Assembly (NCBI GenBank): GCA_045220475.1 | Contig: JBGUVW010000031.1 | Span: forward strand, 84,088 to 148,087 | Direction: 5' to 3' | Source: Bacteroidaceae bacterium | GTDB lineage: Bacteria > Bacteroidota > Bacteroidia > Bacteroidales > Bacteroidaceae | Length of the DNA: 64,000 nt | Part shown: positions 372 through 61,820 of the stretch, one piece after another | How the letters are laid out: each line of letters begins with the position of its first letter | How positions within the stretch are numbered: position 1 is the first letter of the stretch | Position numbers and translations under genes: made by a program | The notes under the pieces: model-generated | The model's database searches: none | What the model saw: the letters and a program-made list of their open reading frames with translations, nothing else | Told to the model about the DNA's origin: nothing

Positions 372-448
372 GCTTCTTTAGCTCAGTTGGTTAGAGCATC
401 TGACTGTTAATCAGGGGGTCCTAGGTTCAAGTCCTAGAAGGAGCGCCA
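372..448 (+). tRNA. tRNA-Asn (anticodon GTT), CCA encoded
   Basis: Cloverleaf folded by hand. Acceptor is gcttctt/aaggagc, anticodon loop is ctGTTaa, T arm is ctagg-ttcaagt-cctag, discriminator is g, then cca. Confidence 0.93.
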
Positions 449-3183: not shown

Positions 3184-3265
3184 GCCCAGATGGCGGAATC
3201 GGTAGACGCGCTGGTCTCAAACACCAGTGGGGCAACCCGTGCCGGTTCGACCCCGGCTCTGGGTA
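3184..3265 (+). tRNA. tRNA-Leu (anticodon CAA), type II with long variable arm
   Basis: Acceptor is gcccaga/tctgggt (G1-U72 wobble), anticodon loop is ctCAAac, variable arm is tggggcaacccgt, and T arm is gccgg-ttcgacc-ccggc. Confidence 0.92.
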
Positions 3266-14100: not shown

Positions 14101-14212
14101 TATCGGGAACAAGTGATACCGGCAGTTTACGTATGGCCGCAATACCCAGGACCATAACTGCTATCAGCACCATGGTCACCGCTATGGGGCGGTTGGTCAA
14201 TCCTTTGAACAT
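11183..14212 (-). CDS. RND efflux permease (AcrB/MdtB-like), first of a tandem pair
   Basis: 1009 aa. The N-terminus MFKGLTNRPIAVTMVLIAVMVLGIAAIRKLPVSLVPDINIPQITVQ is typical of the HAE1 family. Confidence 0.92.
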   Translation of the reverse strand: MFKGLTNRPIAVTMVLIAVMVLGIAAIRKLPVSLVPDINIPQITVQVTSPDRSARELNDILLERLRSELVQVPHLQDITCTARDGSGLIQMTFEYGADADYIFIDVNERVDRAGWPQGEERPMIARASATDIPAFFINVSIKKGLNTSDNRFMEMSDFVRQVIVRRLEQIPEVAMVDVSGQVYPQLLVIPDMEKLRALGTNEQQLSNAIQSANVNLGSLSIRDGEYRFDVRFESSVVTREDVENVWLKLGGRTYQIKDLAEVREEQQRKKGEVTSDGSQCVTLAVIKRTDARMANLREGIQKLMDAFDKDYPDMEFTITRDQTELLDYSINNMVRNLLYGALFACIIIFFFMQDVRSPLLVVITIPTALILSFLFFYVLKISINIISLSGLVLGLGMMVDNSIITIDNITQRWMKGEPLQDACVYGTQEVFTPMLSSVLTTCAIFIPLIFMSGIAGALFYDEAMAVTITLISALIVSVMVIPVFYYRFYKNQPCFTPNKFISKISVGNMTGGYDRILSWFFRRRGVMWGIFGAAVLLIGVLFIKLDKQKLPVLSHSDTLVNIEWNQRISIEENNSRCEQIVAQFPDMVEQYTCMTGAQQFALSHTRELTLSEAIIYIKAGSTHDIDKIEEQVAEYIHKTWPDAVHSSQASGNIFDMLFSDHEPPLVARIKRTNGSTPDPDQLTSLLGSIRTELPDIEIQPAEWNEYIELVADPERLALYEVDFNTLLSYLQKSMNSSSVLRISKGDISMPVVIGVGEKEARDLIQNQYLDTRGGRVPLEILLKETRNRDLKSITSGVDREFYPLVLNVKGKEARRAMDAIQKVVRADEKFDVSFSGTYFTNREMIKELCGVLVISILLLFFILSAQFESLIQPFIILSELIIDIFAVLGVLWIFGETLNLMSMIGMVVMCGIVINDSILKVDTINRLRESGMGLKHAILEAGSRRLKAIVMTSLTTILAIAPFLVRGDMGSDLQYPLSLALISGMIAGTFVSVFFVPLAYYVIYKHTER

Positions 14213-14213
14213 A

Positions 14214-15308
14214 TCATTCCAGAACTACCGGAGCCTCATCGCCAAGATTAAGGTTTCCGCTGGTAATAATAAGGTCACCTAACTCAAGATCGGCTCCACG
14301 GTCCTTATTGGCCTCAACCACATGCTCCGTGGTGTTTGACATGAGCACATTCACATATGTCCACAGGCTCTTTCCGTCCTTGTATCGGAACAGCACATCC
14401 ATGTTGTCACGTATAACCACTGCGCTTTTGGGAACCACCAGCTGGTCTGGGATGCTGTTCTCAACAGTAATGCGCACGTTCATTCCGTCCATCAGGTCAT
14501 CTGATCCCGGAACCTGTGCAGTAACGGCAATCTGACCGTTCTGGTCAACAGTGGGGTTGATGGATATGATTGAACCCTTAAGCTCCACATCATTATCCAC
14601 AAACGGGGATACCAGCACCTGCTGGCCCACACGGATAAACTTATACTCTGTCTCCAGCACGCTGAAACGTACCAGATAACGGCTGTCATCAATCAGAGTG
14701 CACAACTGGCCGCTCTGCTCATGAACACGACCCTTAAGGCTGGCCACCTTTCCGCTGAAAGGAGCCCTAAGGTCACACTGCTCATATGTCCTCTCTGCGT
14801 TGGCAAGTGATATCTGAGCGTCTATGAAACCGCAATTGATATATATCACACGCTTCTGGTCTGCCGGAATCTTGGCAGTATCAGAGAGTGAATAACCGTA
14901 ATCCAGCAGCTTATCGGCCAGACTCATCTCGGCCTTGTCATATGACAGACGGGCCTGCTCCAGCTGACGGCGGGGCTGCTCCTTATCAAGTGATGCCAGG
15001 ATCTGTCCCTTCTGCACCTTCTGTCCGTCACGAACACCAATCTCAGCCACAGTACCCTGGGTTGCAAACTGAATGGTAACCTTACTCTGAGCCTCAAGCT
15101 TACCGTTGCAAACCAACTGCTTGTTAAAGGCCTTACGCTCCAGAGGTACCACGGTCACAACATTCTTCTCGGCATTGTAAGTACCGCGGGCCATCTCAGT
15201 ATCATCAGTATTCTCATTCTTCTCTTTCTTACCCTTGCAGCTGTTCATTCCATATGCAAGTGCTGCAAACAATACTATTGACGCAATCTTTAAAATATGC
15301 TTTTTCAT
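14214..15308 (-). CDS. RND periplasmic adaptor (membrane fusion) lipoprotein
   Basis: Start is set at M26 (ATG 15306-15308), giving MKKHILKIASIVLFAALAYGMNSC with a lipobox. It shows HlyD/MFP-type barrel-sandwich sequence. The longer track ORF would overlap the TolC gene. Confidence 0.85.
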   Translation of the reverse strand: MKKHILKIASIVLFAALAYGMNSCKGKKEKNENTDDTEMARGTYNAEKNVVTVVPLERKAFNKQLVCNGKLEAQSKVTIQFATQGTVAEIGVRDGQKVQKGQILASLDKEQPRRQLEQARLSYDKAEMSLADKLLDYGYSLSDTAKIPADQKRVIYINCGFIDAQISLANAERTYEQCDLRAPFSGKVASLKGRVHEQSGQLCTLIDDSRYLVRFSVLETEYKFIRVGQQVLVSPFVDNDVELKGSIISINPTVDQNGQIAVTAQVPGSDDLMDGMNVRITVENSIPDQLVVPKSAVVIRDNMDVLFRYKDGKSLWTYVNVLMSNTTEHVVEANKDRGADLELGDLIITSGNLNLGDEAPVVLE

Positions 15309-15327
15309 ACTCGTATAATTTCTATTC

Positions 15328-16839
15328 TTACTTGATAAGGTTGTCAAACTCAACACTAATGTCCTTGCCCGATTCCGGGTCATACAACGTAGTGCGTCTT
15401 ATGGCAAAATAATAGTTCCAGAAATTGCCAACACTGGAGACATAGTTGCTCAAGGCATCGTCACGTTTCTCCTTAAGCTGATCCAGCTGGGTCATGGTCA
15501 TTGAACTGCTGCTGAAATTCTTGAGCGCAAGCTCATAGCTCTCCTCAGCCAGGTCAGCTGCACGCTTTGAGATCTCACACTGACTGCGCTGATTGTTGAA
15601 CTGCATGACCTGGGTGAACAGGTCCTGACGGTAATCAATCATATTCTGCTCCAGACGGTTACGTGTGGTTTGGGCTCGAGCCTCGGCCATACGTACACGT
15701 CCGCGTGCCAGGCCCCAATCCAGAATGGGGATGTTGAGCTGAACATTAATAACCTCCTGGTCTTTAAGCTCAATGAACGTATCCCTGAATTTCTCCGATG
15801 AGCCCGACATACCGAATCTGGCGTTCAGTCTGGCAGACAGGCCCCTCTCCGACTTGGCCCTTGCGATACTGGACTCGGCCTCAATATACTCTATTTCCTG
15901 ACCCAGCTGGAATGATGAGTTGTGCAGAGCCCTGTCCAACATATCATCATAATCCAGAGTCACATCAGGAATATCATAGTCAATCTTAAGGTTCAGTTCC
16001 GTATCCTCCTTATAACCAATGTAAGAGCACAGACGGTTCAGTGACGAACGCAGACTGACCGACAAGGAACTCAGTTTCAAAGAGTCATTAAGCATTGTCA
16101 CCTCAATCTGCATAAGCTGGTCACGAGTTATGGTACCCATCTCAAAACGTGTCTGACCGGCCGCGAACAGGCGTTTACTCTCCTCAAAACTCTTCAGGGC
16201 ACGTTCATATTGCTCCTTTTCACGCACGTAACCCCAGAAATAAGAGACGGCAGTCTGGTTAACCTGCTCCATACTCTCAATGTATTGGCGTTTTGCCACC
16301 TCATACTGCTTGGGCTGTGTCTTTTTCTCCCACTTGAACTGGTTGTATCCCCACAGACTCTGGGCATAACTCAGATAAATGGGCTGTGCATAATAGGATG
16401 TAAGACGTGACGGGCTGTACTGATCCAGTCTCTGCATATCGGTAGACAGAGTAATCTGACCACCTGTAAGCGGAATGTTCTGACTGAAATTCAGCGTAGC
16501 GGTGTTTGTCATATTGTAACTGGTCCTGTAAGCTACAGCACCCGTACTGAAATCCTGCAGCTTATCAAGCGAACGTCTAAAATCGCCCAAAGTGGCACTA
16601 AGGCTCAATGAAGGCAACAGCTGCGCCTTATAAGAGCGGTAATTCCAGTACGACGCCACAAAATTGTTACGGTTACTCATTGAAGAGATTGAGTTCTCCT
16701 GAGCCAGTTGAATCACTTCCTGCATTGTAAGTGTTCTGGGACCGATAATCTGTCCTCCACACAAGGAATGCGCCAACAGCGCCGGCAGCAGGAGCAAAAC
16801 TCTTAGAAAAGGTCTTTTCATAAAGTTGATTGCAAACAA
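15328..16839 (-). CDS. TolC-family outer membrane efflux protein
   Basis: 503 aa with a signal peptide. LTMQEVIQLAQENS near the N-terminus and two OEP repeats are typical of TolC-like proteins. Confidence 0.85.
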   Translation of the reverse strand: MFAINFMKRPFLRVLLLLPALLAHSLCGGQIIGPRTLTMQEVIQLAQENSISSMSNRNNFVASYWNYRSYKAQLLPSLSLSATLGDFRRSLDKLQDFSTGAVAYRTSYNMTNTATLNFSQNIPLTGGQITLSTDMQRLDQYSPSRLTSYYAQPIYLSYAQSLWGYNQFKWEKKTQPKQYEVAKRQYIESMEQVNQTAVSYFWGYVREKEQYERALKSFEESKRLFAAGQTRFEMGTITRDQLMQIEVTMLNDSLKLSSLSVSLRSSLNRLCSYIGYKEDTELNLKIDYDIPDVTLDYDDMLDRALHNSSFQLGQEIEYIEAESSIARAKSERGLSARLNARFGMSGSSEKFRDTFIELKDQEVINVQLNIPILDWGLARGRVRMAEARAQTTRNRLEQNMIDYRQDLFTQVMQFNNQRSQCEISKRAADLAEESYELALKNFSSSSMTMTQLDQLKEKRDDALSNYVSSVGNFWNYYFAIRRTTLYDPESGKDISVEFDNLIK

Positions 16840-16943: not shown

Positions 16944-16951
16944 TATCTTTG
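16944..16951 (+). promoter_or_regulatory. -7 box TATCTTTG for the GNAT gene
   Basis: Exact consensus, 19 nt upstream of the ATG at 16970. It lies inside the TTG-started track ORF, so that start is rejected. Confidence 0.45.
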
Positions 16952-16969
16952 TACCACGTGATCAAGGAT

Positions 16970-17518
16970 ATGGATTCAGTCATTACACTAAGAAAAGCCA
17001 CCCAGGCCGATTCACGTTTCATTGCCGAGAACGTGCTCCGTGCGCTGCATATTGAGGAGACTGATCCCCGCCACATAGACCATCTGGCCACCATAAGCAG
17101 CCGTGAAGACACCTTGTACAGCTGGCGGAACTCCACGATTGCACTCTATGACGGTCAACCCGCCGGCCTGATGGTAGCCTATGACGGTGCCCGATACCGC
17201 CGTATGCGTGACATAACATTCCCCATGATCCGCATGTACGTAGGTGATGACTACAACCAGATGGATGACGAGGCCCGTCCCGGCGAGTTTTACCTTGACT
17301 CCCTGGCCGTACTCCCCCAGTTCCGCCGCAAAGGCGTAGCCACTGCCCTGATCAAAGAGATGTTCCGCCTGCAAAACGCCGCAGGAATACCCCTAGCCAC
17401 CATTGCCGTTGATCCGGAGAATGATGAAGCCTACCGCCTATACAGTGCGAACGGATTCCGTCACGACGGCTTCATCTCTGTATTCGGAACCACCTACCAC
17501 CGTTTGGTCTGCCCATAA
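16970..17518 (+). CDS. GNAT-family N-acetyltransferase
   Basis: It carries an acetyl-CoA binding motif region (LAVLPQFRRKGVATALI). Start is taken at the first ATG downstream of the promoter box. Confidence 0.8.
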   Translation: MDSVITLRKATQADSRFIAENVLRALHIEETDPRHIDHLATISSREDTLYSWRNSTIALYDGQPAGLMVAYDGARYRRMRDITFPMIRMYVGDDYNQMDDEARPGEFYLDSLAVLPQFRRKGVATALIKEMFRLQNAAGIPLATIAVDPENDEAYRLYSANGFRHDGFISVFGTTYHRLVCP

Positions 17519-18300
17519 CCATTAAGGACCTTCCGTCCCCCCACAATCCCTATTATAAACTCCTCGGGAATGAATCCCCAGAAACGGGAGTCATAGGAGT
17601 TCATGGAATTATCACCTAAAGCAAAATAATAATCCCCCTTAAAGGAATACTCCTCCAGATCATCACTCATTACATCGCCCGTCTCATACTCAATAACCTG
17701 ACGGTACAACTCACGGGTAAAACCATCCAGAGATACTTTCATTCCCTTTGCAGGAACAACCAAAGGACCCCAATTCTTTATGTTCCACTTATGAGCGGAT
17801 AATGGAATAACATCATAATTGTCATTCCAGATAAACACGCTGTCAAACATCCAGCGTAATCTCTCCTGCTCTTCTACTACTCCAATAGGCCTCAACACCT
17901 TGTCATTCCAACAATGCCCATCCACCGCTCCTATCCTATCTCCGGGACATCCCAGTACACGTTTACAGTATACCTCGGTATTATTAAGTTCAATTGTATG
18001 ACTCCATTTTTTTATAGGCGTATTAAACAGGATAACATCTCCCGGTAATAACTCCCTTAAACCAGGAATACGACAGACGTATTTTTTCTCATTAATCATT
18101 ATCCTAGGCCCAAACAGCATTTTGTCTACTTGAACTCTTTGACCCGGCTCTATGGTGGGATACATTGAGGGTGTCACCACTCTATAGGAATCCATTACCA
18201 GTATTTTTATCAGAACAACAGCCAAACATAAAGCAAACAGATAAGGAGTTACTACAGACTTAATGCTGCTATTCTTTGATTCTGTTCTTTTATTCTCCAT
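17494..18300 (-). CDS. Signal peptidase I (S26 family), last gene of the island operon
   Basis: N-terminal TM, Ser box VVTPSMYPTI, Lys box YCKRVLGCPGD, and GDNSMNSYDSRFWGFIP box. It overlaps the upstream gene by 11 nt and the convergent GNAT gene by 25 nt. Confidence 0.85.
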   Translation of the reverse strand: MENKRTESKNSSIKSVVTPYLFALCLAVVLIKILVMDSYRVVTPSMYPTIEPGQRVQVDKMLFGPRIMINEKKYVCRIPGLRELLPGDVILFNTPIKKWSHTIELNNTEVYCKRVLGCPGDRIGAVDGHCWNDKVLRPIGVVEEQERLRWMFDSVFIWNDNYDVIPLSAHKWNIKNWGPLVVPAKGMKVSLDGFTRELYRQVIEYETGDVMSDDLEEYSFKGDYYFALGDNSMNSYDSRFWGFIPEEFIIGIVGGRKVLNGYGQTKRW

Positions 18301-19921
18301 TTGCCAACATTTTTATACGGTTGTGATATTCTTTTGCGGTATTTGACTGAATTTTAGGAGTGAACTTATCTGAAAATACAGCAATTGCATCCAGTTTTTC
18401 CATATCGCCTGTATAATGATACAGTTCAGCCAGGTCCATTAATGGCGTTATCCTATGAGGTGTCAGCAGGAAAGATTTAATGTATGAAGTCTCAGCTTCA
18501 CTATAATGCTTATGCCTAAAATGATTATGCCCAATTTCACGCCATAAGGAGGGATTGTTATAACGGCTTATTCCCAACCGTAAGATAGAATCAGATTTTT
18601 CATAATGCCCTGTCTTACTTAAGGACACGCCATAAGCATAAATCAAATCTCCGCTCGATAAATCCTTGTCAAACCGGTCGTCACAAAGATTGCATACTGT
18701 CTGGAACTCCCCTTTGTTGAAAAAGAATAATGCATCTGATTCTCCATTCCTAAGTTCCCTAGATCGCTCTATTTGAGGCAACTCAAGAAACAGCATAATT
18801 CCAAATATAGCTATTTCACAATAAGTTAACAGTAAAGGAGCAAAGGAGTATTTGGTATCAGAGAAAGAGTTATCCAGACTACTTGCAGCTCCAAGAAACA
18901 TAGACAAAGACAAGCAATAATCAGAATAACAATGAGGATATGAGAATAGCGATATAAGGAATAGGGATAATAGACCATACCCCAATGGATTCTTATCTTT
19001 AATTAATAGCCATATTGCTCTTAGGATAATATAGAGTGATAACAACATCGCTAAGAAACCATGTTCCACTCCTATCCGCAGAAATTCATTGAACGCAGTC
19101 AATAGAGAACATGCATACCGGGCATCTTTAAAGTCGCCATTAAGTATAGAATCAATATCTACATCATATGAGTTATTACTGAAATACCTGATCTGTTCGT
19201 CTCCAAAGACAGTTGAAAAACTCTCTATTCCAGACCCCAGTACACCATTATGAGGCATTGCCCTAAATGCAATCTTTGCCATATAAAACCGTCCGTCTGC
19301 AGACGGTTTCTTTACGTAATAAAGAATCGCGAACAGGGAAACCAGAATAACAGCTATTGTAACAATATGTTTCTTGACAAACTCCGAATATTTTGGACTC
19401 AAACAGAAATAACAAAAGACCGGAATAATTAGTGCCAACAAAGCCAGACGGCTTTTTGTGAAACCAACTAATACAATGATCAAGCCAATCAACAATAAAG
19501 AAGGTATCTTTAGCCATACTTTGCATCCGTTAAGTACAATTACTGCCAACACGCTGCATGAAATGGAAAGAAAACATCCATAAAGATTAGTATTCGACAT
19601 TGAACCAACCGGATATTCAGCTCCATGATACAACTGTAAGATACCCATGTAAGACTCTTTTAATGTTATAAGCAAGAGTATGGATAAACATATCAGATAT
19701 GCCGTTCCTTTATAATAATGGAAAAGCAATCGCGAAACTGAATAATAAAATAGTATCAAGACACTGTTCCTCAGTTTGATATCTGAGGCACATTCTGCCA
19801 ATGAGGTATATCCACCAAGTATATATTGACCTGCAATCAGCAAAAATGCAAACAATAATATGGCGATATCCAACGAGCAGATTTTATGTATCTTCTTTAC
19901 TCGCGTCACTAATTCACTCAT
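18290..19921 (-). CDS. Polytopic membrane protein, O-antigen-ligase-like (Wzy_C) domain fused to C-terminal TPR repeats
   Basis: There are many hydrophobic segments over about 400 aa, then a soluble tail with TPR-like repeats (YAYGVSLSKTGHYEKSDSILRLG, HFRHKHYSEAETSYIKSFLLTP, LAELYHYTGDMEKL). Start is chosen at the ATG at 19919-19921 (ATGAGTGA overlap). The track ORF begins at a TTG at 19954. Confidence 0.6.
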   Translation of the reverse strand: MSELVTRVKKIHKICSLDIAILLFAFLLIAGQYILGGYTSLAECASDIKLRNSVLILFYYSVSRLLFHYYKGTAYLICLSILLLITLKESYMGILQLYHGAEYPVGSMSNTNLYGCFLSISCSVLAVIVLNGCKVWLKIPSLLLIGLIIVLVGFTKSRLALLALIIPVFCYFCLSPKYSEFVKKHIVTIAVILVSLFAILYYVKKPSADGRFYMAKIAFRAMPHNGVLGSGIESFSTVFGDEQIRYFSNNSYDVDIDSILNGDFKDARYACSLLTAFNEFLRIGVEHGFLAMLLSLYIILRAIWLLIKDKNPLGYGLLSLFLISLFSYPHCYSDYCLSLSMFLGAASSLDNSFSDTKYSFAPLLLTYCEIAIFGIMLFLELPQIERSRELRNGESDALFFFNKGEFQTVCNLCDDRFDKDLSSGDLIYAYGVSLSKTGHYEKSDSILRLGISRYNNPSLWREIGHNHFRHKHYSEAETSYIKSFLLTPHRITPLMDLAELYHYTGDMEKLDAIAVFSDKFTPKIQSNTAKEYHNRIKMLANGE

Positions 19922-20489
19922 AATACCAACCTGAATCATTATACATTTGGGCAAGGTAATCCAGACAGTCTTTCAACTTGCGTGTATCAGACTCTCTATT
20001 TTCCAGTCGATAATACTTTGATACCATACCATCTTTTGCGACCAATAGCAATCGTTGGTTACGGTTTAGAACTGCAGACATCTTGTACCTGAAATCAACC
20101 AATACGTCAAAAGGATAATCCTGAAACTTTATATCATTAACTATCAGGCCAATGTCATCCTTTGGAGATATAATCACCTTAAAATCACATCTATCGCCCA
20201 TTATCTCCCTGCAAACATCATAAAAGGATTCAAAGCCAAGCAGATGTTCCATTTCACATGCCGCACATTTTGATGAATCTATCCACAAAATGATGGAATA
20301 ATCATGTAACAAAGTATCTATTAGTACCATATCAACACGATTTCCCTTTACAAGCAGTAAACTGTCACATTCAATTTGTCTCCCAATTATATCATCATTT
20401 CTGATTATTCCGGAACTGAAAAAACATAACGACAACACCAGAATAATCAGACTGGACGATAACCATTTTTTTACAGATTCCTTACTCAT
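19914..20489 (-). CDS. Membrane-anchored thioredoxin-like protein with CAAC motif
   Basis: N-terminal TM (WLSSSLIILVLSLCFF). LWIDSSKCAACE resembles the W-x-x-x-C-x-x-C active-site region of TlpA-type proteins, with 2 extra residues. Its ATG directly abuts the upstream stop. Confidence 0.5.
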   Translation of the reverse strand: MSKESVKKWLSSSLIILVLSLCFFSSGIIRNDDIIGRQIECDSLLLVKGNRVDMVLIDTLLHDYSIILWIDSSKCAACEMEHLLGFESFYDVCREIMGDRCDFKVIISPKDDIGLIVNDIKFQDYPFDVLVDFRYKMSAVLNRNQRLLLVAKDGMVSKYYRLENRESDTRKLKDCLDYLAQMYNDSGWYYE

Positions 20490-21713
20490 TTACAACAGCT
20501 CCATCTTAATAAAGATTGTTTCTCCCTCAGAAAGGTTCTGTTCTTCAACATATCTCTTCAATTGCTTATAGAGAGACCTGATTTTTTCATCATGAAGGGA
20601 TTCGGTTTTTGAAAGAATGTAGTATAAACTATAAGAAACACGACCATATATAATATTGTCATACTCACATAACCTTGTAAAGGAGAACCATATATATTTC
20701 CATATATCCAATGTTGTCAATTCCGGAACCAGAGAATCTTCAAAGAAACTGTCAGGACGCAAAATAATACCACAAGAGTTTTGCGTCTTGTCATACAACA
20801 TGGAATGATATTTATTGTTGATAAAAAAATTGGCTACAATATATTTGTCCGTTTCAAATAAGCCGGATATAGAGTTAAGGAAATCCCCATTAAATACCAT
20901 AAGATCTTTACCCGGAAGCATCAGTTCAGCCCCAGTAATTCCATCAAAGATGTCTTTTGTCATCTCCTTATCTGCCTTAAACCTGTAAGTTGATTCAACC
21001 CCGTTCTTGGTCAAAGAAAAAATATTGTAATCATAATTCAACATGAATCGGAGTGTATCATGATAAATATATGATAATTCCGTATACCCTTCAGTTCCAT
21101 TAAATGCTATCAAGTAAGGCGGCATAGTCAGATAACTGTCATATCTGGAAGCATCTTTATTATAGGTTATGCAGTAATGATTATTTTTTTCATTCTCTCC
21201 AAAAACGGTGAGGCCCAAATAAGAATCTGAGTTCTTATACAGATAACTCCCTTTTATTTCGGTCTTATTATCATAACCCATGAATTCTCCCATATCTGTA
21301 TAACGCAACAGTCGGCCCAATACAAGATCATAAAGCATCAGTGTATCATTCATCATAAACATGTTACCCACATTCAGCACTTCACCTCTCCCCCTTCCGG
21401 TAAGTGGTTTTGAGAACTTAAGATTGCCAGACTTGTCATAACCCAAGAAAAAATAGGTCCTATCTGAAAGGAAATAATAACCATTATCAGAAACGGCCAT
21501 TTTAGGACAATCCAGATGAACCCAATTATCACCAACCTTCAAGTTCAATACACTGATATCCGCAATTCTGTCAATGATATCAAAACGGTTCGTTTTATTA
21601 TCCAGATCAATATAATGTTTGGTAGGATAATTAAATAAATCTTCACCGCTGTTCTTATCAGAACATGAAATCAAAGAAACCAACAATAAACACAAACAAA
21701 TAATCTTTTTCAT
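20490..21713 (-). CDS. Lipoprotein, 6-bladed beta-propeller-like (BF3164-like Bacteroidales family)
   Basis: Signal peptide with lipobox LISC. The sequence is Tyr/Asn/Phe-rich, repetitive and beta-type. Its overall resemblance to the Bacteroidales 6-bladed beta-propeller family is judged from memory only. Confidence 0.55.
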   Translation of the reverse strand: MKKIICLCLLLVSLISCSDKNSGEDLFNYPTKHYIDLDNKTNRFDIIDRIADISVLNLKVGDNWVHLDCPKMAVSDNGYYFLSDRTYFFLGYDKSGNLKFSKPLTGRGRGEVLNVGNMFMMNDTLMLYDLVLGRLLRYTDMGEFMGYDNKTEIKGSYLYKNSDSYLGLTVFGENEKNNHYCITYNKDASRYDSYLTMPPYLIAFNGTEGYTELSYIYHDTLRFMLNYDYNIFSLTKNGVESTYRFKADKEMTKDIFDGITGAELMLPGKDLMVFNGDFLNSISGLFETDKYIVANFFINNKYHSMLYDKTQNSCGIILRPDSFFEDSLVPELTTLDIWKYIWFSFTRLCEYDNIIYGRVSYSLYYILSKTESLHDEKIRSLYKQLKRYVEEQNLSEGETIFIKMELL

Positions 21714-21731
21714 AATCTTTATCTATTTAAT

Positions 21732-21753
21732 ATTTGGGGCCGAAGCCCCAAAT
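21732..21753 (-). other. Intra-operon stem-loop with cUUCGg tetraloop
   Basis: The minus-strand RNA is AUUUGGGGC-UUCG-GCCCCAAAU, a 9-bp stem with no U-tract after it. It lies between the second small-protein gene and the propeller gene. Confidence 0.7.
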
Positions 21754-21758
21754 AAGAA

Positions 21759-22127
21759 TTAATACTCCATTAGTTCTGGTATGATATTATCGAGTTTAGT
21801 ACCATCTGGCAGCCAAACCCCAACATATTGAGTTTCACACAAAGAGTAATCTTGTGATCCACACCACCTTTCTTCAATTCTTCCATCATCTATTGACAGA
21901 TCTATGTTATAGATATTGAAAAACTCTAAAGGAGTTAGGCGCCTACGTCTTAGGGTCGTATTAAAAATAAATGATACTTCTGTACCATTTTCCATTCTCC
22001 ATCCCCATTCGGGAGGTTCAGCATATGCAATTTTTGTATCAAATGACAGAGCACTTATAACATTCTCTGATTGACACAACAAAAACAATAAGCTGATAGC
22101 GATAATATAAACTCTGTATTTCTTCAT
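21759..22127 (-). CDS. Small secreted protein B (122 aa), paralog of 22160-22570
   Basis: N-terminal hydrophobic segment, then ENVISALSFDTKIAYAEPPEW, ENGTE, and WCGSQDYSLCETQY. It aligns end to end with protein A. Confidence 0.65.
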   Translation of the reverse strand: MKKYRVYIIAISLLFLLCQSENVISALSFDTKIAYAEPPEWGWRMENGTEVSFIFNTTLRRRRLTPLEFFNIYNIDLSIDDGRIEERWCGSQDYSLCETQYVGVWLPDGTKLDNIIPELMEY

Positions 22128-22159
22128 GTTAAGATAGTATTATATGTTTAATACTCAAA

Positions 22160-22570
22160 TCAAAAAGGACTGCTTAACATTGGAACCCATTGTTTTGAAC
22201 CTGGTAGTATTAGAAAAACATTTCCATTGTAAGACATCGGACACATATCATCATCGCTTTTTGTACAATATGTGAGAGCTATCCTGCAATCAGACAGCGC
22301 TTTATGATACGCTCCGGCCCTAGCCTCAAGCATTTTAACTGTAACTCCCAGAGTACCACCCCATTCGCTTGCTGTATTATATACAATATCTGGTCTGGAA
22401 TTAAGCAATACTACTCTTTCGGTTCCATTCGCATCAGGAAGAAGTACCCACTCTGGATCTGCATAAGCAATCTTTGTGTCAAAAAACAATGCATTCCTTA
22501 CACGATCAATAGAAAGCACAGATAAAGCTGCTGTCATTATGGCTAGCAGTACATAATGTTTTGTTTTCAT
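22160..22570 (-). CDS. Small secreted protein A (136 aa), paralog of 21759-22127
   Basis: Start is moved to M33 (ATG 22568-22570), where MKTKHYVLLAIMTAALSVLS forms a signal sequence aligned to protein B. It then reads DRVRNALFFDTKIAYADPEW, ANGTE, and YCTKSDDDMCPMSY. Confidence 0.65.
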   Translation of the reverse strand: MKTKHYVLLAIMTAALSVLSIDRVRNALFFDTKIAYADPEWVLLPDANGTERVVLLNSRPDIVYNTASEWGGTLGVTVKMLEARAGAYHKALSDCRIALTYCTKSDDDMCPMSYNGNVFLILPGSKQWVPMLSSPF

Positions 22571-23033: not shown

Positions 23034-25010
23034 TTACCACCATTCTATGTTTCCGTCTTGATCCAGCAGGAACGGACGCTCATCATTTCCTCTGGTATAG
23101 TTACGTAGCCAGAGAAGTGTATTGATGGGAACATTGTCATAATGCAGAGTGTTGTCATCGGCCACTTTACGGCCTATTGAGAACCAGTCTAGTCCGTCAA
23201 AGTACAGCAGTTCATACTGGTTGCCGGGACATATGTCATTGTCATCACTACGGGGGACAATCCTTACGAATGATACATTGCCAGGAGTTCCCAAATCCAG
23301 CCCCACCCAGTTTCCATCTGGTTGGTTCACCTCAAAATTGCTGAGCAGGTCTCCGTCATATGCCCGGTCTATTGCATCCTGGCCCGCCTCGGGGACTGCA
23401 ATTCCACGGCCTTTTACCGGATTACCCAAGCTATCCATAAACAGGACCTCGGCAACACTACCCCATGAGCCGTCGGGCGAGAGATAACGCCAGTAACGGT
23501 AAGGGGCACGGGCACAAACCGGAATCTTGTCAGGAATTATTGTACTCTCTATTGTGTAAAGTGTTACTGAATCACTGAAATCAGGACGTGTTGCGCACTG
23601 TATCTTGCCTCCAAGTATACGCCGACGCATATCTACCACATTATAAGACTCAAAGTACTTGCGACGAATATCAATGCTGCGCACGCCGTCACCTCCTTCG
23701 CTATGGATATAACGTACTCTACCGTCTTTTTCCAGGATAAACGGTTCACTTGCCGGAGCAAGGGCAGAACCGTTATAATAGAGCGCTATGTAAAGAACGT
23801 TTCTACCCATGTTCCTGAAACAGGCCTTATCATGCTTAACCTCTCCATAATCCAGGACACGCCATGATGGACCACCGGAATTTACAAACACTGCTATGTA
23901 GGCATATTTATCATCAATCCTTATATCACTCAATAACTGAACCTCTATGTCCGATGTCCGTACGTAATGGTCCGTCACATCCTGCTGGCACAGATCAAAC
24001 TGATGGACATATTTGGCCGTATTACGGTATCTTACAATGTCACGGTTAATGGAAAATGTACTGCGCCAAACTTTGGGAATACGTTCATAGGGATAGAATG
24101 GCATGCCAGCCGCTACGATAAGGGAATTGATAGTTGGAGTCTCCTTGCCCTGGTCTGAAAGGAACGTGAACCAACTGTGTCCTTCACTGTTACGTCCCCA
24201 TACTGGAACACGGTCCACAACCGACGGCAGTCCCAGGCTACGGAAAACGGCAGTTCCCATAGTTACATAATCATAACAGCTGCCAAATGTCATATGGGCC
24301 CATGTCTGGGCATTTCTTAAAGGTATACCGCTGCGTTCCTCCCATAATACACGCGGCGGATTCTTGGTATGAATCTCATTACGGACTATATCTATTGCAC
24401 CATATATGGAGAGACGGCGGTCATCATCTGACGGAACGGAACTGATACTGTCCGAGAAACGTGCCGAAAGGGTATCACGCCATGAATCCAGCAACTGATA
24501 ATCTATGACTTTGTATGGCAATATCCAATCCCTGAACTCATCAAATGTGAGATGCTGAGCCCACGGACGGGTACGCCACTCATGGAATGCCTTGTCAATA
24601 TTTTCAATCAGATAATCAGATGTTACCAGCTTTATGTCAGATTCTACGGATCTTGAAAGAGTATAATTGAGCGCATCACTGATGGAGCGTAAGGTATCAC
24701 GCTGCCACTCGGGGGTACCGCCTGATTGCTGAATCTTAAGAGCTGCGTTATAATAGAAATCAACTGTTGCCGTATCAGAGTATGAGAAGTGTCCCGGCAT
24801 GTTGATGATAAGATACTTGGCAGCAGCTAACTTGGACGGATCCTTGTCCTCGTGCCTATAATGGTCAAGGACCCGTTCAAGTTGCGGCCGGTTCTCGCCG
24901 GCAACTTTAAGGGCATAACGCAGATACCTCTGTTCATTACTGCAACTGCTTAAAACTGCCAGGAGAACACATGAGACCGAAGCCCCAATAAATCCAAAGA
25001 TGTTTTTCAT
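23034..25010 (-). CDS. Transglutaminase-like lipoprotein with C-terminal F5/8 type C (discoidin) domain
   Basis: Lipobox LSSC. Core motifs are FGSCYDY...FRSLGLPSVVDRV...GHSWF (Cys and His of the transglutaminase core). The C-terminus YWRYLSPDGSWGSVAEV...WVGLDLG...FVRIVPR is discoidin-like. Confidence 0.8.
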   Translation of the reverse strand: MKNIFGFIGASVSCVLLAVLSSCSNEQRYLRYALKVAGENRPQLERVLDHYRHEDKDPSKLAAAKYLIINMPGHFSYSDTATVDFYYNAALKIQQSGGTPEWQRDTLRSISDALNYTLSRSVESDIKLVTSDYLIENIDKAFHEWRTRPWAQHLTFDEFRDWILPYKVIDYQLLDSWRDTLSARFSDSISSVPSDDDRRLSIYGAIDIVRNEIHTKNPPRVLWEERSGIPLRNAQTWAHMTFGSCYDYVTMGTAVFRSLGLPSVVDRVPVWGRNSEGHSWFTFLSDQGKETPTINSLIVAAGMPFYPYERIPKVWRSTFSINRDIVRYRNTAKYVHQFDLCQQDVTDHYVRTSDIEVQLLSDIRIDDKYAYIAVFVNSGGPSWRVLDYGEVKHDKACFRNMGRNVLYIALYYNGSALAPASEPFILEKDGRVRYIHSEGGDGVRSIDIRRKYFESYNVVDMRRRILGGKIQCATRPDFSDSVTLYTIESTIIPDKIPVCARAPYRYWRYLSPDGSWGSVAEVLFMDSLGNPVKGRGIAVPEAGQDAIDRAYDGDLLSNFEVNQPDGNWVGLDLGTPGNVSFVRIVPRSDDNDICPGNQYELLYFDGLDWFSIGRKVADDNTLHYDNVPINTLLWLRNYTRGNDERPFLLDQDGNIEWW

Positions 25011-25017
25011 GATTGAT

Positions 25018-26403
25018 TCAGATTGGTTTATTACACCATTTATTCAAATATGGAGAGAAAACCGTATCAGCAGATACGTATTGGGTGGTTCCATCCTTCT
25101 TTAATATAAAGGGATCTGATATCGGTACGAGAGCAACACCGTCATAACCCAGAACTATGTACATGACTTCACGGCCCATGTTCTCAAAAACGGCCCTACG
25201 ACCCTTTAGTTTGCAGAAATCTACAATTTTCCAACCGTCCGGCTCAGGACCCGCACTGGGTGCGATATGGTCCTGAGTTGAACGAATGGCCGAAGCGATA
25301 TAGACGTATCGGTCCTTAAGTTTGCTCCGGTTGTGTTTTTCAATAGTTACAGAGACATGTGATGAAAGAAAGTATTTGTCTGTGACGTCCTTTACGGTAA
25401 TATCAAAGGGATATACGTACTTTGCGTTCTGTATATAATCAAGTCTGCGTTCATCTATTGCATATGTCTGTCTGAATACCTTGGGCCCACGTTCATACGG
25501 AAAGAAGGACCAGCCTATCTGGGTGGCAAGATCCCACTCTGAGGTAACCTCCTTACCGCGGTCCGACAAAATCACGAACCAACGGGTTGCTGCCTCATCC
25601 CTTGCTCCTACAGGAGTTTCATCAAGAACCACCGGAACTCCCATACTGCGGAATGACAAAGCAGCCAGCAGCGCATAATCAGGAATATGTCCGAATGTCT
25701 GACGGTGCAGAAGTGAAGCGCTGAGCAACGGCAATCCACTTTCCGTATAGAGGCCGTGACGGTTTATCTTGGTTAGAACCTCATTGCGGATCATATCGGC
25801 CACACCTGTGGTGGTATTGTACTCCACATCATTCTTTACGGGATTACGCATGCCGTCACCAAAGTACAGTGATAAGGTGTCACGCCAATAATCCAATTCC
25901 TGCAGATCTACCGCCTTATATGGCAACAGCCATTCCAGATACTCATTGAAAGTGAGCTGGCTTGCCCATGGACAGTTTTTCCACTGGTCATAAGAGAGGT
26001 CTATATTATGTATAAGATAATCCTTTGATATTACTCTTGTATCAGGGACGGTACGCTCAGGTAAATGAGAATACAACCTTTTGGTCACCATGAGCAGTGA
26101 GTCGCGCTGTGACTCAGGTGTAAGGGTGTCATTACTCAGAATGCGCTGAGCATAGTCATAATACAGGTAAATGGAATCACCCAAGTAAGAATAGTGCGCG
26201 GACATATTCTTAATAAGGAACAGGGCTGCTTCAAATTTCTCGGGAACAGGATCCTGGGTACTGTAGTGATTTAAGACAGCCTCTATGGTCGGCCGGTTTT
26301 CACCGGCCGACCCGAGCGCTGTTTCCAGCTGAGTGTTTTTACTCTGACAGGAAAAGGCTGCAAACAAGGCCATCATAGCGATGATGGAGTCTCTTAACAA
26401 CAT
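25018..26403 (-). CDS. Transglutaminase-like lipoprotein paralog lacking catalytic Cys and His
   Basis: It aligns with the downstream paralog, for example AGENRPTIEAVLNHY against AGENRPQLERVLDHY. The core reads FGHIPDY...ATRWF in place of FGSCYDY...GHSWF, and there is no discoidin domain. Confidence 0.7.
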   Translation of the reverse strand: MLLRDSIIAMMALFAAFSCQSKNTQLETALGSAGENRPTIEAVLNHYSTQDPVPEKFEAALFLIKNMSAHYSYLGDSIYLYYDYAQRILSNDTLTPESQRDSLLMVTKRLYSHLPERTVPDTRVISKDYLIHNIDLSYDQWKNCPWASQLTFNEYLEWLLPYKAVDLQELDYWRDTLSLYFGDGMRNPVKNDVEYNTTTGVADMIRNEVLTKINRHGLYTESGLPLLSASLLHRQTFGHIPDYALLAALSFRSMGVPVVLDETPVGARDEAATRWFVILSDRGKEVTSEWDLATQIGWSFFPYERGPKVFRQTYAIDERRLDYIQNAKYVYPFDITVKDVTDKYFLSSHVSVTIEKHNRSKLKDRYVYIASAIRSTQDHIAPSAGPEPDGWKIVDFCKLKGRRAVFENMGREVMYIVLGYDGVALVPISDPFILKKDGTTQYVSADTVFSPYLNKWCNKPI

Positions 26404-26640: not shown

Positions 26641-27702
26641 ATGAAGAAAGCATCCCTGTTATTACTCCTGTCTATGGTATTGTGCAACTGCACTGGTCAG
26701 AAAACAGCCTATCTGCTGCATGGATCCATACAGGAAAAGGATATAGACAAGCTGTATCTGATAAGCTCCGGTCAAGTGATTGATTCGGCAGAGGTAAGTG
26801 ATAAAGGAGAGTTCTCATTCAAGGGTGAAATCATACTGCCCAAGCTTGCAAATATTGCCAATACGCGCAACCTACGTGTGGCATCACTCAACTGCACGGT
26901 AATTCTTGAACCGGGTGATCTCACTATGGTTCCTCTGGGCTTTTATGATGAATATAAGGTGACAGGCTCCAGGACTAATGACCTGTTCAACACCTTTGTA
27001 CAAAAGTCTATTGAGCTTACACAGTATTATGAGGCTCATGAGGGCCAGGACGGCATTATTGAGGAGGTTCAGCAGAAATGGAAGACATTCCTGGTGGATG
27101 GCGCAAAAAAGAACAGCGGTAACCTGTTTGGCCTGATATGCCTCCGTGAGGTTGCCGATGACCTGGAACCGCAAGAGGTAAGGAACATACTTGACTCATT
27201 CAAGGCTCGTATGCAGGAGACTGATCTGTGGAAAGCTCTTAATGAACGCAATGTAAAACTGATGGGCACGGCACCCGGAAGCCCATATACAGAATTCAGC
27301 CAGACCGATATCCACGGCAACGTCATATCATCAAAGGATGTGCTGGCGGCTCCGGGAGTAAAATATGTGCTGATAGATTTCTGGGCATCATGGTGCGGAC
27401 CGTGCATGCGTGAGGTTCCGTACCTTAAAGAGACCTACAGCAAATATTTTGAAAAAGGATTCCAGATCCTGGGAGTATCACTTGACCGCTCAAAAGACGC
27501 CTGGCTCAAGGCCATCACAGACAACCAGATGAACTGGGTACATGTAAGTGACCTGAAATACTGGGACAATGAGGTGTCAAGAGAATACGGTATAACCTCA
27601 ATTCCTGCCAATTTCCTGGTAGACGCAAGCACCGGCATGATTATAGCTACCAATCTGAGAGGAGACGATCTGGAGAGGAAGATATCAGAACTACTTAAGT
27701 AA
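26641..27702 (+). CDS. TlpA-family thiol:disulfide oxidoreductase lipoprotein (DUF4369 N-domain + thioredoxin fold)
   Basis: Lipobox-like LCNC. The active site is IDFWASWCGPCMREVP. Confidence 0.9.
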   Translation: MKKASLLLLLSMVLCNCTGQKTAYLLHGSIQEKDIDKLYLISSGQVIDSAEVSDKGEFSFKGEIILPKLANIANTRNLRVASLNCTVILEPGDLTMVPLGFYDEYKVTGSRTNDLFNTFVQKSIELTQYYEAHEGQDGIIEEVQQKWKTFLVDGAKKNSGNLFGLICLREVADDLEPQEVRNILDSFKARMQETDLWKALNERNVKLMGTAPGSPYTEFSQTDIHGNVISSKDVLAAPGVKYVLIDFWASWCGPCMREVPYLKETYSKYFEKGFQILGVSLDRSKDAWLKAITDNQMNWVHVSDLKYWDNEVSREYGITSIPANFLVDASTGMIIATNLRGDDLERKISELLK

Positions 27703-27710
27703 ATTAGGCA

Positions 27711-29219
27711 ATGGCAAGCAGCAAGATGGCATCATTGGCCAAGGATACGGCCATTTACGGAATAAGCAGCATTGTAGGCAGGTTCATAAACTATCTGCTT
27801 ACACCACTATACACTAATATCCTTGAGGCTCAGGATGCACAGTATGGAGCTATCACCAAGATGTATGCCTATACTGCCCTGTGTCTGGTGCTGCTTACAT
27901 TCGGAATGGAGACCACAATGTTCAGGTTCGCCAATAAAGAGGGGCAGAAACCGGAACGGGTCTATTCTACCGCTCTCATATCGGTAGGTATCCTTTCTGC
28001 GCTGTTTGCTGCCTTGTGCATAACATTCAGGTATGAGATATGTGCTTTCCTGCAGTATCCTGATCACCCAGAGTATGTGACGGCCCTGTCACTCGTAGTG
28101 GCTATTGACTCTTTTCAGGCTATCGTATTCTCATATCTGAGATTCCTTAAGAGGCCCATTAAGTTTGCCGCGCTCAAGCTTACCAACATCGGCCTTACAA
28201 TTGCCCTCAACCTGATAATAGTGTTGTGGTTCTCATCGGTTTACCAGAATCATCCCAGACTGCTTGGATGGTACAGCATGGATAACGTAATCAGATACGT
28301 ATTCTACATCAATCTGTTCTGCTCGGCCAGCATTACCTTAGGTTTGTTGCCCGAGATTAAGCAGATTAGGAACGGATTTGACACAAAGCTGTTCAAACAG
28401 ATGCTGTCCTACACCTGGCCTATCCTGATTCTGGGTCTGGCCGGTATCCTAAACCAGGTGGCCGATAAGATATGCTTTACCAAGATCATCACGGGCGAGG
28501 AAGGTGAAAGGCTGTTGGGCATTTACGGAAGCGCCGTCAAGGTTGCCATGATAATGTCCATGCTCACACAGGCATTCCGTTACGCCTATGAGCCTATGGT
28601 GTTCAGCACCGCCGCCAAGGACAAGACAGGCCAGAACAAGATTTATGCCGATGCCATGAAGTATTTCATAATATTCTCACTGCTGGCATTCCTGTTTGTC
28701 ATGTTCTACCTGGATTACTTCAAGTTTATAATAGGAAGGACCTATTGGGAAGGCCTTAAGGTTGTGCCCATAGTCATGATGGCCGAGATATTCATGGGTA
28801 TATATTTCAACCTCTCTTTCTGGTACAAACTGATTGACCAGACCTGGTGGGGTGCCATATTCTCATTCGTAGGCTGCGCCGTGCTGCTGGCAATTAACTT
28901 CATCTATGTGCCGCAATACGGATATATGGCCTGCGCCTGGGGAGGATTTGCCGGTTACGCCACATGCATGATCCTGTCCTACTTCATCGGCCAGAAAAAG
29001 AGTCCCATAAACTATCCGCTTAAGGAGATTGCCGTTTACGTGCTGCTGGCTGCCGCACTCTACGTGGCTTACCTTTACGTGGATAAGAAAGAACTGTCCG
29101 GTTGGATTACATTCATAATCAACACAGTCCTTCTCTGCATCTACCTGGCCTACCTAATAAAGAAAGACCTGCCATTGGCAAGTCTTCCTGTAGTCGGTAA
29201 ATATTTCAAAAAGAATTAA
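27711..29219 (+). CDS. Polysaccharide/oligosaccharide flippase-like membrane protein (MOP/Wzx superfamily)
   Basis: 502 aa with about 14 hydrophobic segments. The N-terminus KDTAIYGISSIVGRFINYLLTPLYT is typical of polysaccharide biosynthesis proteins. Confidence 0.7.
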   Translation: MASSKMASLAKDTAIYGISSIVGRFINYLLTPLYTNILEAQDAQYGAITKMYAYTALCLVLLTFGMETTMFRFANKEGQKPERVYSTALISVGILSALFAALCITFRYEICAFLQYPDHPEYVTALSLVVAIDSFQAIVFSYLRFLKRPIKFAALKLTNIGLTIALNLIIVLWFSSVYQNHPRLLGWYSMDNVIRYVFYINLFCSASITLGLLPEIKQIRNGFDTKLFKQMLSYTWPILILGLAGILNQVADKICFTKIITGEEGERLLGIYGSAVKVAMIMSMLTQAFRYAYEPMVFSTAAKDKTGQNKIYADAMKYFIIFSLLAFLFVMFYLDYFKFIIGRTYWEGLKVVPIVMMAEIFMGIYFNLSFWYKLIDQTWWGAIFSFVGCAVLLAINFIYVPQYGYMACAWGGFAGYATCMILSYFIGQKKSPINYPLKEIAVYVLLAAALYVAYLYVDKKELSGWITFIINTVLLCIYLAYLIKKDLPLASLPVVGKYFKKN

Positions 29220-61748: not shown

Positions 61749-61820
61749 TACCTCCGCTGGGAATCGAACCCAAATTTAAAGTTTAGGAAACTTCCGTTCT
61801 ATCCATTGAACTACAGAGGC
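61749..61820 (-). tRNA. tRNA-Arg (anticodon CCT)
   Basis: The minus strand reads gcctctgtagttcaatggatagaacggaagtttCCTaaactttaaatttgggttcgattcccagcggaggta. The cloverleaf folds with two G-U pairs in the acceptor stem and a TTCGATT T-loop. CCA is not encoded. Confidence 0.85.

Follow-up and report, generated by a model that had tools for sequence, protein, structure and literature searches.

Two small exported proteins and a candidate signal peptidase of their own in a gene module of ruminant-foregut Bacteroidales

Why do two small exported proteins of a ruminant Bacteroidaceae keep a conserved Ala-Tyr-Ala (AYA) site far behind the hydrophobic part of their leaders, and which enzyme would cut there? 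The question is raised by a pair of adjacent genes, A and B, in a 64,000-nucleotide stretch of a Bacteroidaceae genome (contig JBGUVW010000031.1 of assembly GCA_045220475.1, positions 84,088 to 148,087), which was analyzed as a whole and is called the window below; coordinates are those of the window. The two genes and their relevant parts are as follows (aa, amino acids):
22160-22570, minus strand: gene A, 136 aa from the ATG of MKTKHYV, an A-type cargo precursor with a predicted mature part of ~99 aa
22460-22570, minus strand: leader of A, codons 1-37, made up of the n-region MKTK, a hydrophobic core from Y6 to I21, the segment DRVRNALFFDTKI, and A35-Y36-A37
22241-22267, minus strand: C102-x7-C110 of A, invariant cysteines with a hypervariable 7-residue loop
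21759-22127, minus strand: gene B, a 122-aa open reading frame (ORF), a B-type cargo precursor with a predicted mature part of ~86 aa
22020-22127, minus strand: leader of B, codons 1-36, ending ...ENVISALSFDTKIAYA
21837-21863, minus strand: C89-x7-C97 of B, both invariant alignment columns
Gene A encodes three cysteines (C95, C102, and C110) and the C-terminal end ...SSPF; in gene B, the motif is W-C-x7-C and the product ends in the conserved tail ...IPELMEY. Longer upstream starts for A (145 or 168 aa) show no conservation in distant orthologs. Our answer, whose chances we regard as about evenly balanced, is that A and B are Sec-exported cargo proteins released at AYA by a type I signal peptidase (family S26) encoded in their own gene module, with the C-x7-C pair disulfide-bonded; the cleavage itself is predicted.

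A reading of the window from its letters alone (the sequence-only reading) had described A and B as two paralogous small exported proteins, and this was confirmed with exact gene coordinates. BLASTP aligns them at 27% identity (E 2e-8), and in phmmer searches of the 1081 six-frame ORFs of the window, A matches only B and vice versa (E ~1e-6). The string FDTKIAYA occurs in the same two ORFs only, and the resemblance is beyond chance. Relatives are few. In word-indexed searches of 5.8 billion proteins, A hit 6 clusters and B hit 4, each 73-92% identical to its query; an exhaustive hidden Markov model (HMM) search of 1.84 billion cluster representatives returned 11 proteins at E<=1e-3; and a scan of 185,579 species-representative genomes yielded two loci, one in a sheep-reticulum Bacteroidaceae metagenome-assembled genome (MAG) and one in a rumen RUG MAG. 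All sources bearing a name are ruminant foregut, and neither A and B nor their family have a Pfam match of any kind. Orthologs of A are 79-91% identical and distant A-types 22-39%, while B orthologs are 73-92% identical. The family falls into two orthologous groups, the A-types, which usually have three cysteines and end in ...NPF, and the B-types, which have the W-C-x7-C motif and end in P-E-x-M-x-Y, a terminus present in the B-types of all distant loci. Each locus of the window's kind (variant 1, see below) contains one A-type and one B-type, always in that order; the duplication is therefore ancient, with both copies retained, and the earlier picture of proteins diversifying after duplication gives way to that of two old orthologous groups.

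Both leaders open in the manner of Sec signals, with a positively charged n-region (MKTK or MKK) and a Kyte-Doolittle 9-residue mean that peaks at 2.5-3.2 over residues 5-20. The hydrophobic core ends at about residue 20, and AYA (residues 35-37) follows 14-17 residues further on in A and B and ~23 residues further on in a second type of cargo (variant 2), so that the site is indeed unusually far away, as had been remarked. A short c-region of about 3-7 residues is lacking in A, B, and variant 2, and only variant 3 (...RKASA) is conventional in this respect. The predicted junction of A reads RNALFFDTKIAYA/DPEWVL, with the cut after AYA; the mature proteins would start at D38 in A and E37 in B. 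The block in front of the junction had been proposed as conserved, and it is: L28, F30, D31, T32, K33, I34, A35, Y36, and A37 are invariant in 12 close A and B sequences, and among 17 diverse members A35, E51, and both cysteines are invariant, with D31, Y36, A37, G49, and G116 at least 90% conserved. The last 11 leader residues of A and B are 89% identical, compared with 23% for the mature parts. Small residues occupy positions -3 and -1, where A35 (the -3 Ala) is invariant in two independent alignments and the Ala at -1 is replaced by Ser only; at -2, Tyr gives way to Phe in some members. These substitutions are those expected of signal peptidase I. In 57 distinct sequences collected with a regular expression that fixed positions -3 to -1, for which the alignments are the unbiased evidence, the +1 residue is D, E, A, T, G, S, K, N, I, or R and never Pro.

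The juxtamembrane segment (~16 residues) has the family consensus S-phi-R-x-A-L-x-F-D-T-K-I, and in its first part, S-[VIF]-R-x-A-L, the weak likeness of ENVISAL and DRVRNAL to the NVEALA motif that had been noted dissolves. NVEALA proteins are small, with a hydrophobic N terminus and a small-residue motif ~15 residues later, and they are often encoded near DUF5128 genes; a DUF5128 gene adjoins A and B as well, a general likeness that is a lead at most. The HMM comparison gave no support to a link: A and B do not match the Pfam family NVEALA (PF14055) at E<=1, and neither do any of 17 family members at E<=10 or any of seven variant cargo proteins at E<=1. A regular expression for NVEALA-like motifs had no hit in any of the six frames of the window or in 46 related loci. 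The proteins also differ in length (119-189 aa in the A/B family, about 68-88 in NVEALA), and a literature search on NVEALA and DUF5128 found no papers.

The candidate enzyme for the AYA site lies a short way downstream. Four genes follow B on the same strand, abutting or overlapping, and the module reads A, B, hairpin, DUF5128 propeller lipoprotein, CxxC protein, Wzy_C-like/TPR protein, and S26, the last of the tightly packed set:
21731-21754, minus strand: stem-loop UAUUUGGGGC-UUCG-GCCCCAAAUA, 5 nt past the stop codon of B and ahead of the propeller gene
20490-21713, minus strand: DUF5128 six-bladed beta-propeller lipoprotein, 407 aa (Pfam PF17170; lipobox LISC/SDK)
19914-20489, minus strand: 191-aa CxxC envelope protein with an invariant W-x-D-S-x-x-C-x-x-C-E, a candidate thiol-disulfide oxidoreductase
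18290-19939, minus strand: Wzy_C-like polytopic membrane protein, 549 aa, with a C-terminal TPR region (~411-534; TPR matches among PDB sequences)
17494-18300, minus strand: type I signal peptidase S26, 268 aa, with one N-terminal transmembrane helix (PF10502, TIGR02227)
The S26 protein matches PF10502 with 86.9 bits (E 2e-24) and the NCBIfam model TIGR02227 with 76 bits (cut-off, 47). Its boxes S45-M-x-P-T, K113-R, G229-D-N, and S235-x-D-S-R are invariant in six diverse orthologs, and the predicted nucleophile Ser45 (SMYPT) and general base Lys113 place it in the Ser/Lys type. Its gene overlaps the Wzy_C-like gene by 11 nt and is the only S26 gene in the window; A and B, in turn, are the only non-lipoprotein exported proteins of the module. 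Because the operon encodes its own catalytically intact S26, which the sequence-only reading had missed, the Ala-X-Ala site gains an obvious partner. In cultured Prevotella, S26 genes average about one per genome (46 in total, spread over 41 of 46 genomes; PMC9045265), and the module S26 would thus fit an add-on enzyme.

The other parts of the module are conserved to different degrees. The stem-loop is GC-rich (RNAfold, -16.2 kcal/mol), and its position is kept in 13 of 13 variant-1 loci examined, among the more distant of which L008 has an extended stem (-24.2) and L010 a different loop (-21.6). A scan for Rho-independent terminators called none, and the hairpin has no U tract. The DUF5128 propeller gene is present in every module; the window protein scores 26.0 bits against PF17170 (cut-off, 22.9), and a variant-2 ortholog scores 132 bits (E 3e-38). 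The CxxC protein, with C41, W69, D71, S72, C75, C78, E79, C93, and C175 invariant in its alignment, has no match in Pfam or among PDB sequences. In an hhalign comparison with the TlpA-like domain encoded elsewhere in the window, the CxxC motifs align, although the match is weak (E 0.12). A CxxC protein occupies the same position in variants 1 to 3; for variant 2, the motif was read in L024 only, as QCQDC.

The Wzy_C-like protein scores 29.3 bits with Pfam Wzy_C, below the cut-off of 31.7, and has invariant S163-R164, R217, N284, E292, and G294. A weak hhalign match to Escherichia coli WaaL (E 0.08) aligns F283-N-E with H338-N-E (A-F-N-E against L-H338-N-E), and the position of WaaL His338 is Phe or Tyr in nine of nine module Wzy_C-like proteins (Tyr in one variant). 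Given the domain score and these residues, the Wzy_C-like protein is probably no standard ligase or O-oligosaccharyltransferase; it could be a relative of the O-antigen ligases that lacks catalysis or works by another mechanism. Enzymes of the TfpO, PglS, and TfpM type are encoded next to their pilin substrates, and the module likewise places a Wzy_C-type polytopic protein beside small exported proteins. It differs in the sub-cut-off domain, the Phe or Tyr in place of His, the appended TPR, and the lack of the gene in several variant-2 modules; L020, L021, L028, L034, and L045 contain no ORF of Wzy_C-like size. All known substrate-specific O-oligosaccharyltransferases (TfpO, PglS, TfpM) carry a Wzy_C domain, and the catalytic His is required in characterized Wzy_C enzymes (PMC9829042). 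A PDB profile search for kinship with WaaL or oligosaccharyltransferases gave only TPR matches and a single marginal oligosaccharyltransferase hit (9rmk, E 0.018) that was lost once the TPR was removed. Protein glycosylation by the Wzy_C-like protein was down-weighted on account of the sub-cut-off domain, and the Phe or Tyr in place of the catalytic His; the NGT sequon of A and B is not kept in the family either, other members reading DGS or GGE.

The six-gene order recurs in all cargo-anchored loci (L001-L012), including the distant ones, with S26 3.5-4.5 kb downstream of the cargo. Since the flanks of L008 differ, the module appears to move as a unit. A metagenome scan with the S26 alignment returned 34 loci, all at least 50% identical; wherever such an S26-anchored locus extends far enough upstream, it includes a cargo gene with a leader. 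The genes upstream of S26 define four cargo variants:
Variant 1: the A plus B pair, leader ending ...FDTKIAYA; the window locus belongs here
Variant 2: a single ~186-aa protein with a 48-49-residue leader ending ...N[KH][IF]A[YF][AS]
Variant 3: a single 127-129-aa A/B-like core (HMM E 1e-5) with a short conventional signal, ...RKASA
Variant 4: two 177-185-aa proteins with C-x7-C-x7-C and no AYA (L046:4211-5345, a single locus)
In variant 2 the gene order is cargo, DUF5128, a ~200-aa membrane-anchored protein, sometimes the Wzy_C-like gene, and S26. The variant-3 cargo (L019:5213-5596, L025:5271-5660) shows NGEE, WCG...C, and a GV[FY]VIS-DGR tail, has A-S-A directly behind the hydrophobic core, and is accompanied by the propeller, CxxC, Wzy_C-like, and S26 genes. 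One variant-4 leader, read by eye, resembles the LFF...K-x-LL-K juxtamembrane segment of variant 2. The S26 tree tracks the cargo variant and groups variants 2 and 3 as clades, which argues that the module evolves as a unit; the S26 of L046 is among the most divergent.

Leader and core differ in their constraint, as the sequence-only reading had anticipated. Pairwise identity among A orthologs is 95.6% in the leader and 73.9% in the mature part; the corresponding values are 87.5% and 71.4% for B and 63% and 33% for variant 2. In Nei-Gojobori estimates from three orthologous genomes, which rest on few sites, the dN/dS ratio (omega) of A is 0-0.28 in the leader and 0.43-1.07 in the mature part, and that of B is 0.08-0.23 and 0.32-0.42; dN of A is 0-0.036 in the leader versus 0.13-0.19 in the mature part. 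The propeller, CxxC, and Wzy_C-like genes have omega values of ~0.2, and a 658-aa lipoprotein gene upstream of A has 0.06-0.09. The cores evolve in a relaxed or partly diversifying manner; positive selection is unproven, the site counts being small. In an hhalign comparison of variants 1 and 2, only the leaders align (residues 1-42 with 1-53, E 1.6e-5, probability 79%), so that leader and core are separable modules. The leader postulated earlier thus behaves as a separable segment, the same leader preceding a ~186-aa core that is not alignable with A or B.

In the core itself, the cysteine pair is invariant across the family (17 diverse members), with a spacing of 7 residues, or 9 in some. The loop that it frames in A has 34% pairwise identity in orthologs that are ~74% identical elsewhere. 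Of the C-x7-C-x3-Y core first described, the cysteines therefore hold, with a spacing of 7 or 9, whereas the Tyr is confined to close relatives; distant A-types read CPLAMTG or CFLDDTG from the second cysteine. The supposed LP-x-G-x-K tail is not kept family-wide, and only its turn Gly (G116) is conserved. AlphaFold2 (AF2) models of A and B were built from an 18-sequence alignment. The model of A (pLDDT 79) has a helix at residues 2-29, a coil at 29-38 with pLDDT<50 that includes FDTKIAYA, and a beta-rich domain with one helix at 41-132 (block means, pLDDT 85-92); C102 and C110 lie within a confident predicted strand segment, 96-111. The model of B (pLDDT 76.7) shows the same architecture, with residues 28-36 at pLDDT<50. 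Because a low-pLDDT coil precedes a confident domain, FDTKIAYA would be a linker ahead of the fold and not part of it. Foldseek found no fold match for the A and B models in the PDB or for A in BFVD (best E ~0.1-3, TM up to 0.31). In six loci, the predicted mature proteins have acidic pI values (4.1-5.0).

On these grounds we propose the following route. The Sec n-region and hydrophobic helix would insert the precursors of A and B, with their 36-37-residue presequences, into the inner membrane, where the juxtamembrane segment would present the Ala-aromatic-Ala/Ser site to the membrane-anchored module S26; this enzyme would cut after AYA and release acidic beta-rich domains of ~86-99 residues into the periplasm. 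The distance of AYA from the hydrophobic core exceeds what routine processing would accept, for which reason we propose a dedicated cut, and the leader is probably a dedicated processing tag. The invariant cysteine pair would form a disulfide around the variable loop, probably aided by the CxxC protein. Joint action of the A-type and B-type as a pair is most likely, given their constant co-occurrence. Cargo mRNA is probably kept at a higher level than that of the processing genes by the hairpin behind B, and the TPR domain of the Wzy_C-like protein might, as a speculation, bind the conserved C-terminal tails. Fast-evolving cores, together with four cargo variants at a largely syntenic site, suggest a cargo role at the surface or between strains.

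Several points weigh against this route. Plausible conventional sites lie right behind the hydrophobic core (VLS/I in A, CQS/E in B, and ISA/K in variant 2), and AYA is missing from L046, the variant that diverges most. Only 18 sequences underlie the AF2 models, the thioredoxin-like label of the CxxC protein rests on its motif and a weak hhalign match, and the Wzy_C-like protein lacks the His needed in characterized relatives and has no assigned role.

The first of these points underlies an alternative that we hold to be unlikely, namely, that A and B have ordinary Sec signals, which the housekeeping peptidase cuts near residue 17-20. The segment ...ALxFDTKIAYA would then stay as the mature N terminus, a docking strand, donor strand, or propeptide used by the propeller, by the TPR protein, or in assembly between subunits, and the module S26 would have some other substrate or role. 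Sites that comply with the -3/-1 pattern (A-L-S17 and V-L-S20 in A, C-Q-S20 in B) do lie at the usual distance from the core, the flexible and conserved N-terminal peptide (pLDDT<50) also resembles a partner-binding strand, and the variant-3 cores function with a short plain signal. However, candidate sites near residue 20 are not conserved (P0009 reads F-Q-A, and the B-type of L008 has no small -1 residue), whereas A-[YF]-[AS] is near-invariant and never followed by Pro. In addition, S26 is a constant part of the module, whose only candidate type I substrates are A and B, and the leader travels between unrelated cores like a tag.

A further possibility, which we consider very unlikely, is that the signals are uncleaved anchors. 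A and B would then be type II inner-membrane proteins, AYA would be no cleavage site, and the juxtamembrane segment would be a contact surface for the Wzy_C-like/TPR protein or a peptidase-like partner. The single long AF2 helix (2-29), a variant-2 hydrophobic stretch of ~20 residues, which is of transmembrane length, and the persistence of the K-x-LL-K segment in variant 4, which has no AYA, would all suit an anchor. The strict small/aromatic/small pattern, in which -1 changes from Ala to Ser only, is nevertheless a signature of signal peptidase I, and the S26 protein retains every catalytic residue and hence is no degenerate scaffold of the SipA kind.

The contrast between leader and core, the 34% identity of the C-x7-C loop, the omega of up to 1.07 for mature A in one pair, and the four cargo variants at a largely syntenic site would also be compatible with a two-component toxin, bacteriocin-like or effector, formed by A and B, with the downstream genes serving maturation, export, and self-protection. 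A pump of the OEP/HlyD/RND type lies near the module in several loci, and a thiol-oxidoreductase-like gene lies near A and B; a thiol-oxidoreductase gene is also found near bacteroidetocin loci. We nonetheless think such a toxin improbable, and the bacteriocin-like nature first suggested for the pair is poorly supported. A and B have no double-glycine leader, their surroundings encode no C39 peptidase, ABC exporter, or small immunity-type membrane protein, and Pfam scans of all neighboring genes found no C39, ABC, radical SAM, or lanthionine enzymes. Six loci lack the pump beside the module, omega as a whole stays under 1, no cargo protein matches a Pfam toxin, and a PADLOC scan of eight module proteins found no anti-phage defense match. 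The module does share with class II bacteriocins, ribosomally synthesized and posttranslationally modified peptides (RiPPs), and bacteroidetocins a transferable conserved leader before variable or unrelated cores, a variable loop with a predicted disulfide constraint, and a thiol-oxidoreductase-like gene. Unlike theirs, the A/B leader contains a Sec helix and ends in Ala-X-Ala instead of Gly-Gly, S26 takes the place of C39 and an ABC exporter, and what is made is not a peptide but a folded, acidic domain of ~90-140 residues (~90-100 for mature A and B, with the low pI given above).

Release of A and B by the module S26 has a closer parallel. Dedicated signal peptidases with their own substrates are known from Gram-positive biofilm fibers and pili, and by analogy the module appears to resemble such a peptidase with cognate substrates most. 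SipW, the Bacillus subtilis example, is an enzyme of the endoplasmic reticulum/archaeal type (S26B), unlike the module S26, which is of the bacterial Ser/Lys type with K113. One B. subtilis operon encodes SipW together with the two substrates to which this peptidase is dedicated, TasA (signal of 27 aa) and TapA (signal of 33 aa) (PMC4551309). Like tapA-sipW-tasA, the module combines two exported proteins that have long signals with a signal peptidase in one operon, and a signal peptidase is co-operonic with exported candidate substrates in all loci examined. The substrates are beta-rich in both systems; TasA and TapA are extracellular and work together. Unlike TasA (Peptidase_M73) and camelysin, A and B have no Pfam or PDB fold match, and the diderm Bacteroidales host and the propeller, CxxC, and Wzy_C-like/TPR partners have no counterpart in the B. 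subtilis system. The module thus departs from the dedicated-peptidase model in enzyme subtype, envelope, partner genes, and cargo fold, and also in that unrelated cargo proteins have a long conserved c-region in common.

The chance that the module as a whole constitutes a new pathway is a real one. A fuller proposal, which we advance tentatively, as one joint claim that is doubtful as a whole, is a new N-terminal sorting and maturation pathway of Bacteroidota. The dedicated S26 would recognize a transferable "pro" segment of 15-25 residues that separates the Sec helix from the cargo, and unrelated cargo would be held at the inner membrane until oxidized and then passed on by a fixed set of partners, the propeller lipoprotein, the CxxC protein, and the His-less Wzy_C-like/TPR protein. 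Such a pathway would be an N-terminal counterpart of sortase/exosortase logic that delivers fast-evolving proteins of new fold for strain-level interactions in the rumen. The gene module is previously undescribed, and a literature search found described neither a dedicated peptidase-substrate pairing in Bacteroidota nor a conserved extended c-region that moves between unrelated cargo domains. If the module S26 cuts at AYA, the leader becomes a sequence tag for finding the cargo of a new export and maturation route of rumen Bacteroidales; the cores become a new small-protein fold with a disulfide-framed hypervariable loop; and the large uncharacterized DUF5128 propeller family acquires a functional context. 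If a housekeeping enzyme cuts earlier, the finding shrinks to a lineage-restricted secreted pair with a conserved N-terminal motif.

Around the module, the window contains the following features:
7992-16839, minus strand: efflux operon, with OEP at 15328-16839, an HlyD-type adaptor at 14214-15383, and two consecutive AcrB-family genes at 11183-14212 and 7992-11186
16949-17518, plus strand: GNAT acetyltransferase gene, convergent on S26 and overlapping its 3' end by 25 nt
23034-25010, minus strand: 658-aa lipoprotein with transglutaminase-like, CBM6-like, and F5/8C-like parts
25018-26403, minus strand: 461-aa lipoprotein, a facultative upstream neighbor, transglutaminase-like, without the Cys and His
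26641-27702, plus strand: DUF4369/TlpA-like thioredoxin lipoprotein gene, divergent from the module
27711-29219, plus strand: Polysacc_synt_3 flippase-like gene, divergent from the module
372-445 (plus strand), 3184-3265 (plus strand), and 61749-61820 (minus strand): three tRNA genes from an Rfam scan, which found no other family in the window
The same pump lies directly after S26 in L043 and L046 and nearby in L020; it was rejected as a core exporter, since L006, L008, L011, L019, L021, and L045 lack it next to their modules. The GNAT arrangement is repeated in L001-L005, and a GNAT gene is close by in L006, L011, and L019. Because the TlpA-like and flippase-like genes flank L001-L003, L006, L007, and L011, most carriers share a syntenic site.

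The two upstream lipoproteins are paralogs (40% identical) with weak Pfam matches. The 658-aa protein shows the Cys/His motifs GSCYDY...GHSW, read by eye, and its CBM6-like segment matches PDB entry 2yb7 (E 4e-13). The pair accompanies variants 1, 2, and 4 in some loci, and a ~50-aa relic is found elsewhere. Where the pair is missing, a relic of the 461-aa gene (~50 codons, residues ~344-395) lies upstream of the cargo, for example, at L011:5700-6250 and also in L006, L007, L014, L016-L019, L023-L025, L031, L032, L035, and L038-L040. An RNA element was considered for a conserved ~400-nt stretch upstream of the cargo in many loci and rejected, as the stretch has no Rfam match and is the relic of the 461-aa gene, which is intact in the window. 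The relic surroundings (380-550 nt) are 68-76% identical between loci whose proteins are 50-60% identical, which is high for a dead pseudogene, and the stretch may hold the cargo promoter or an unrecognized element.

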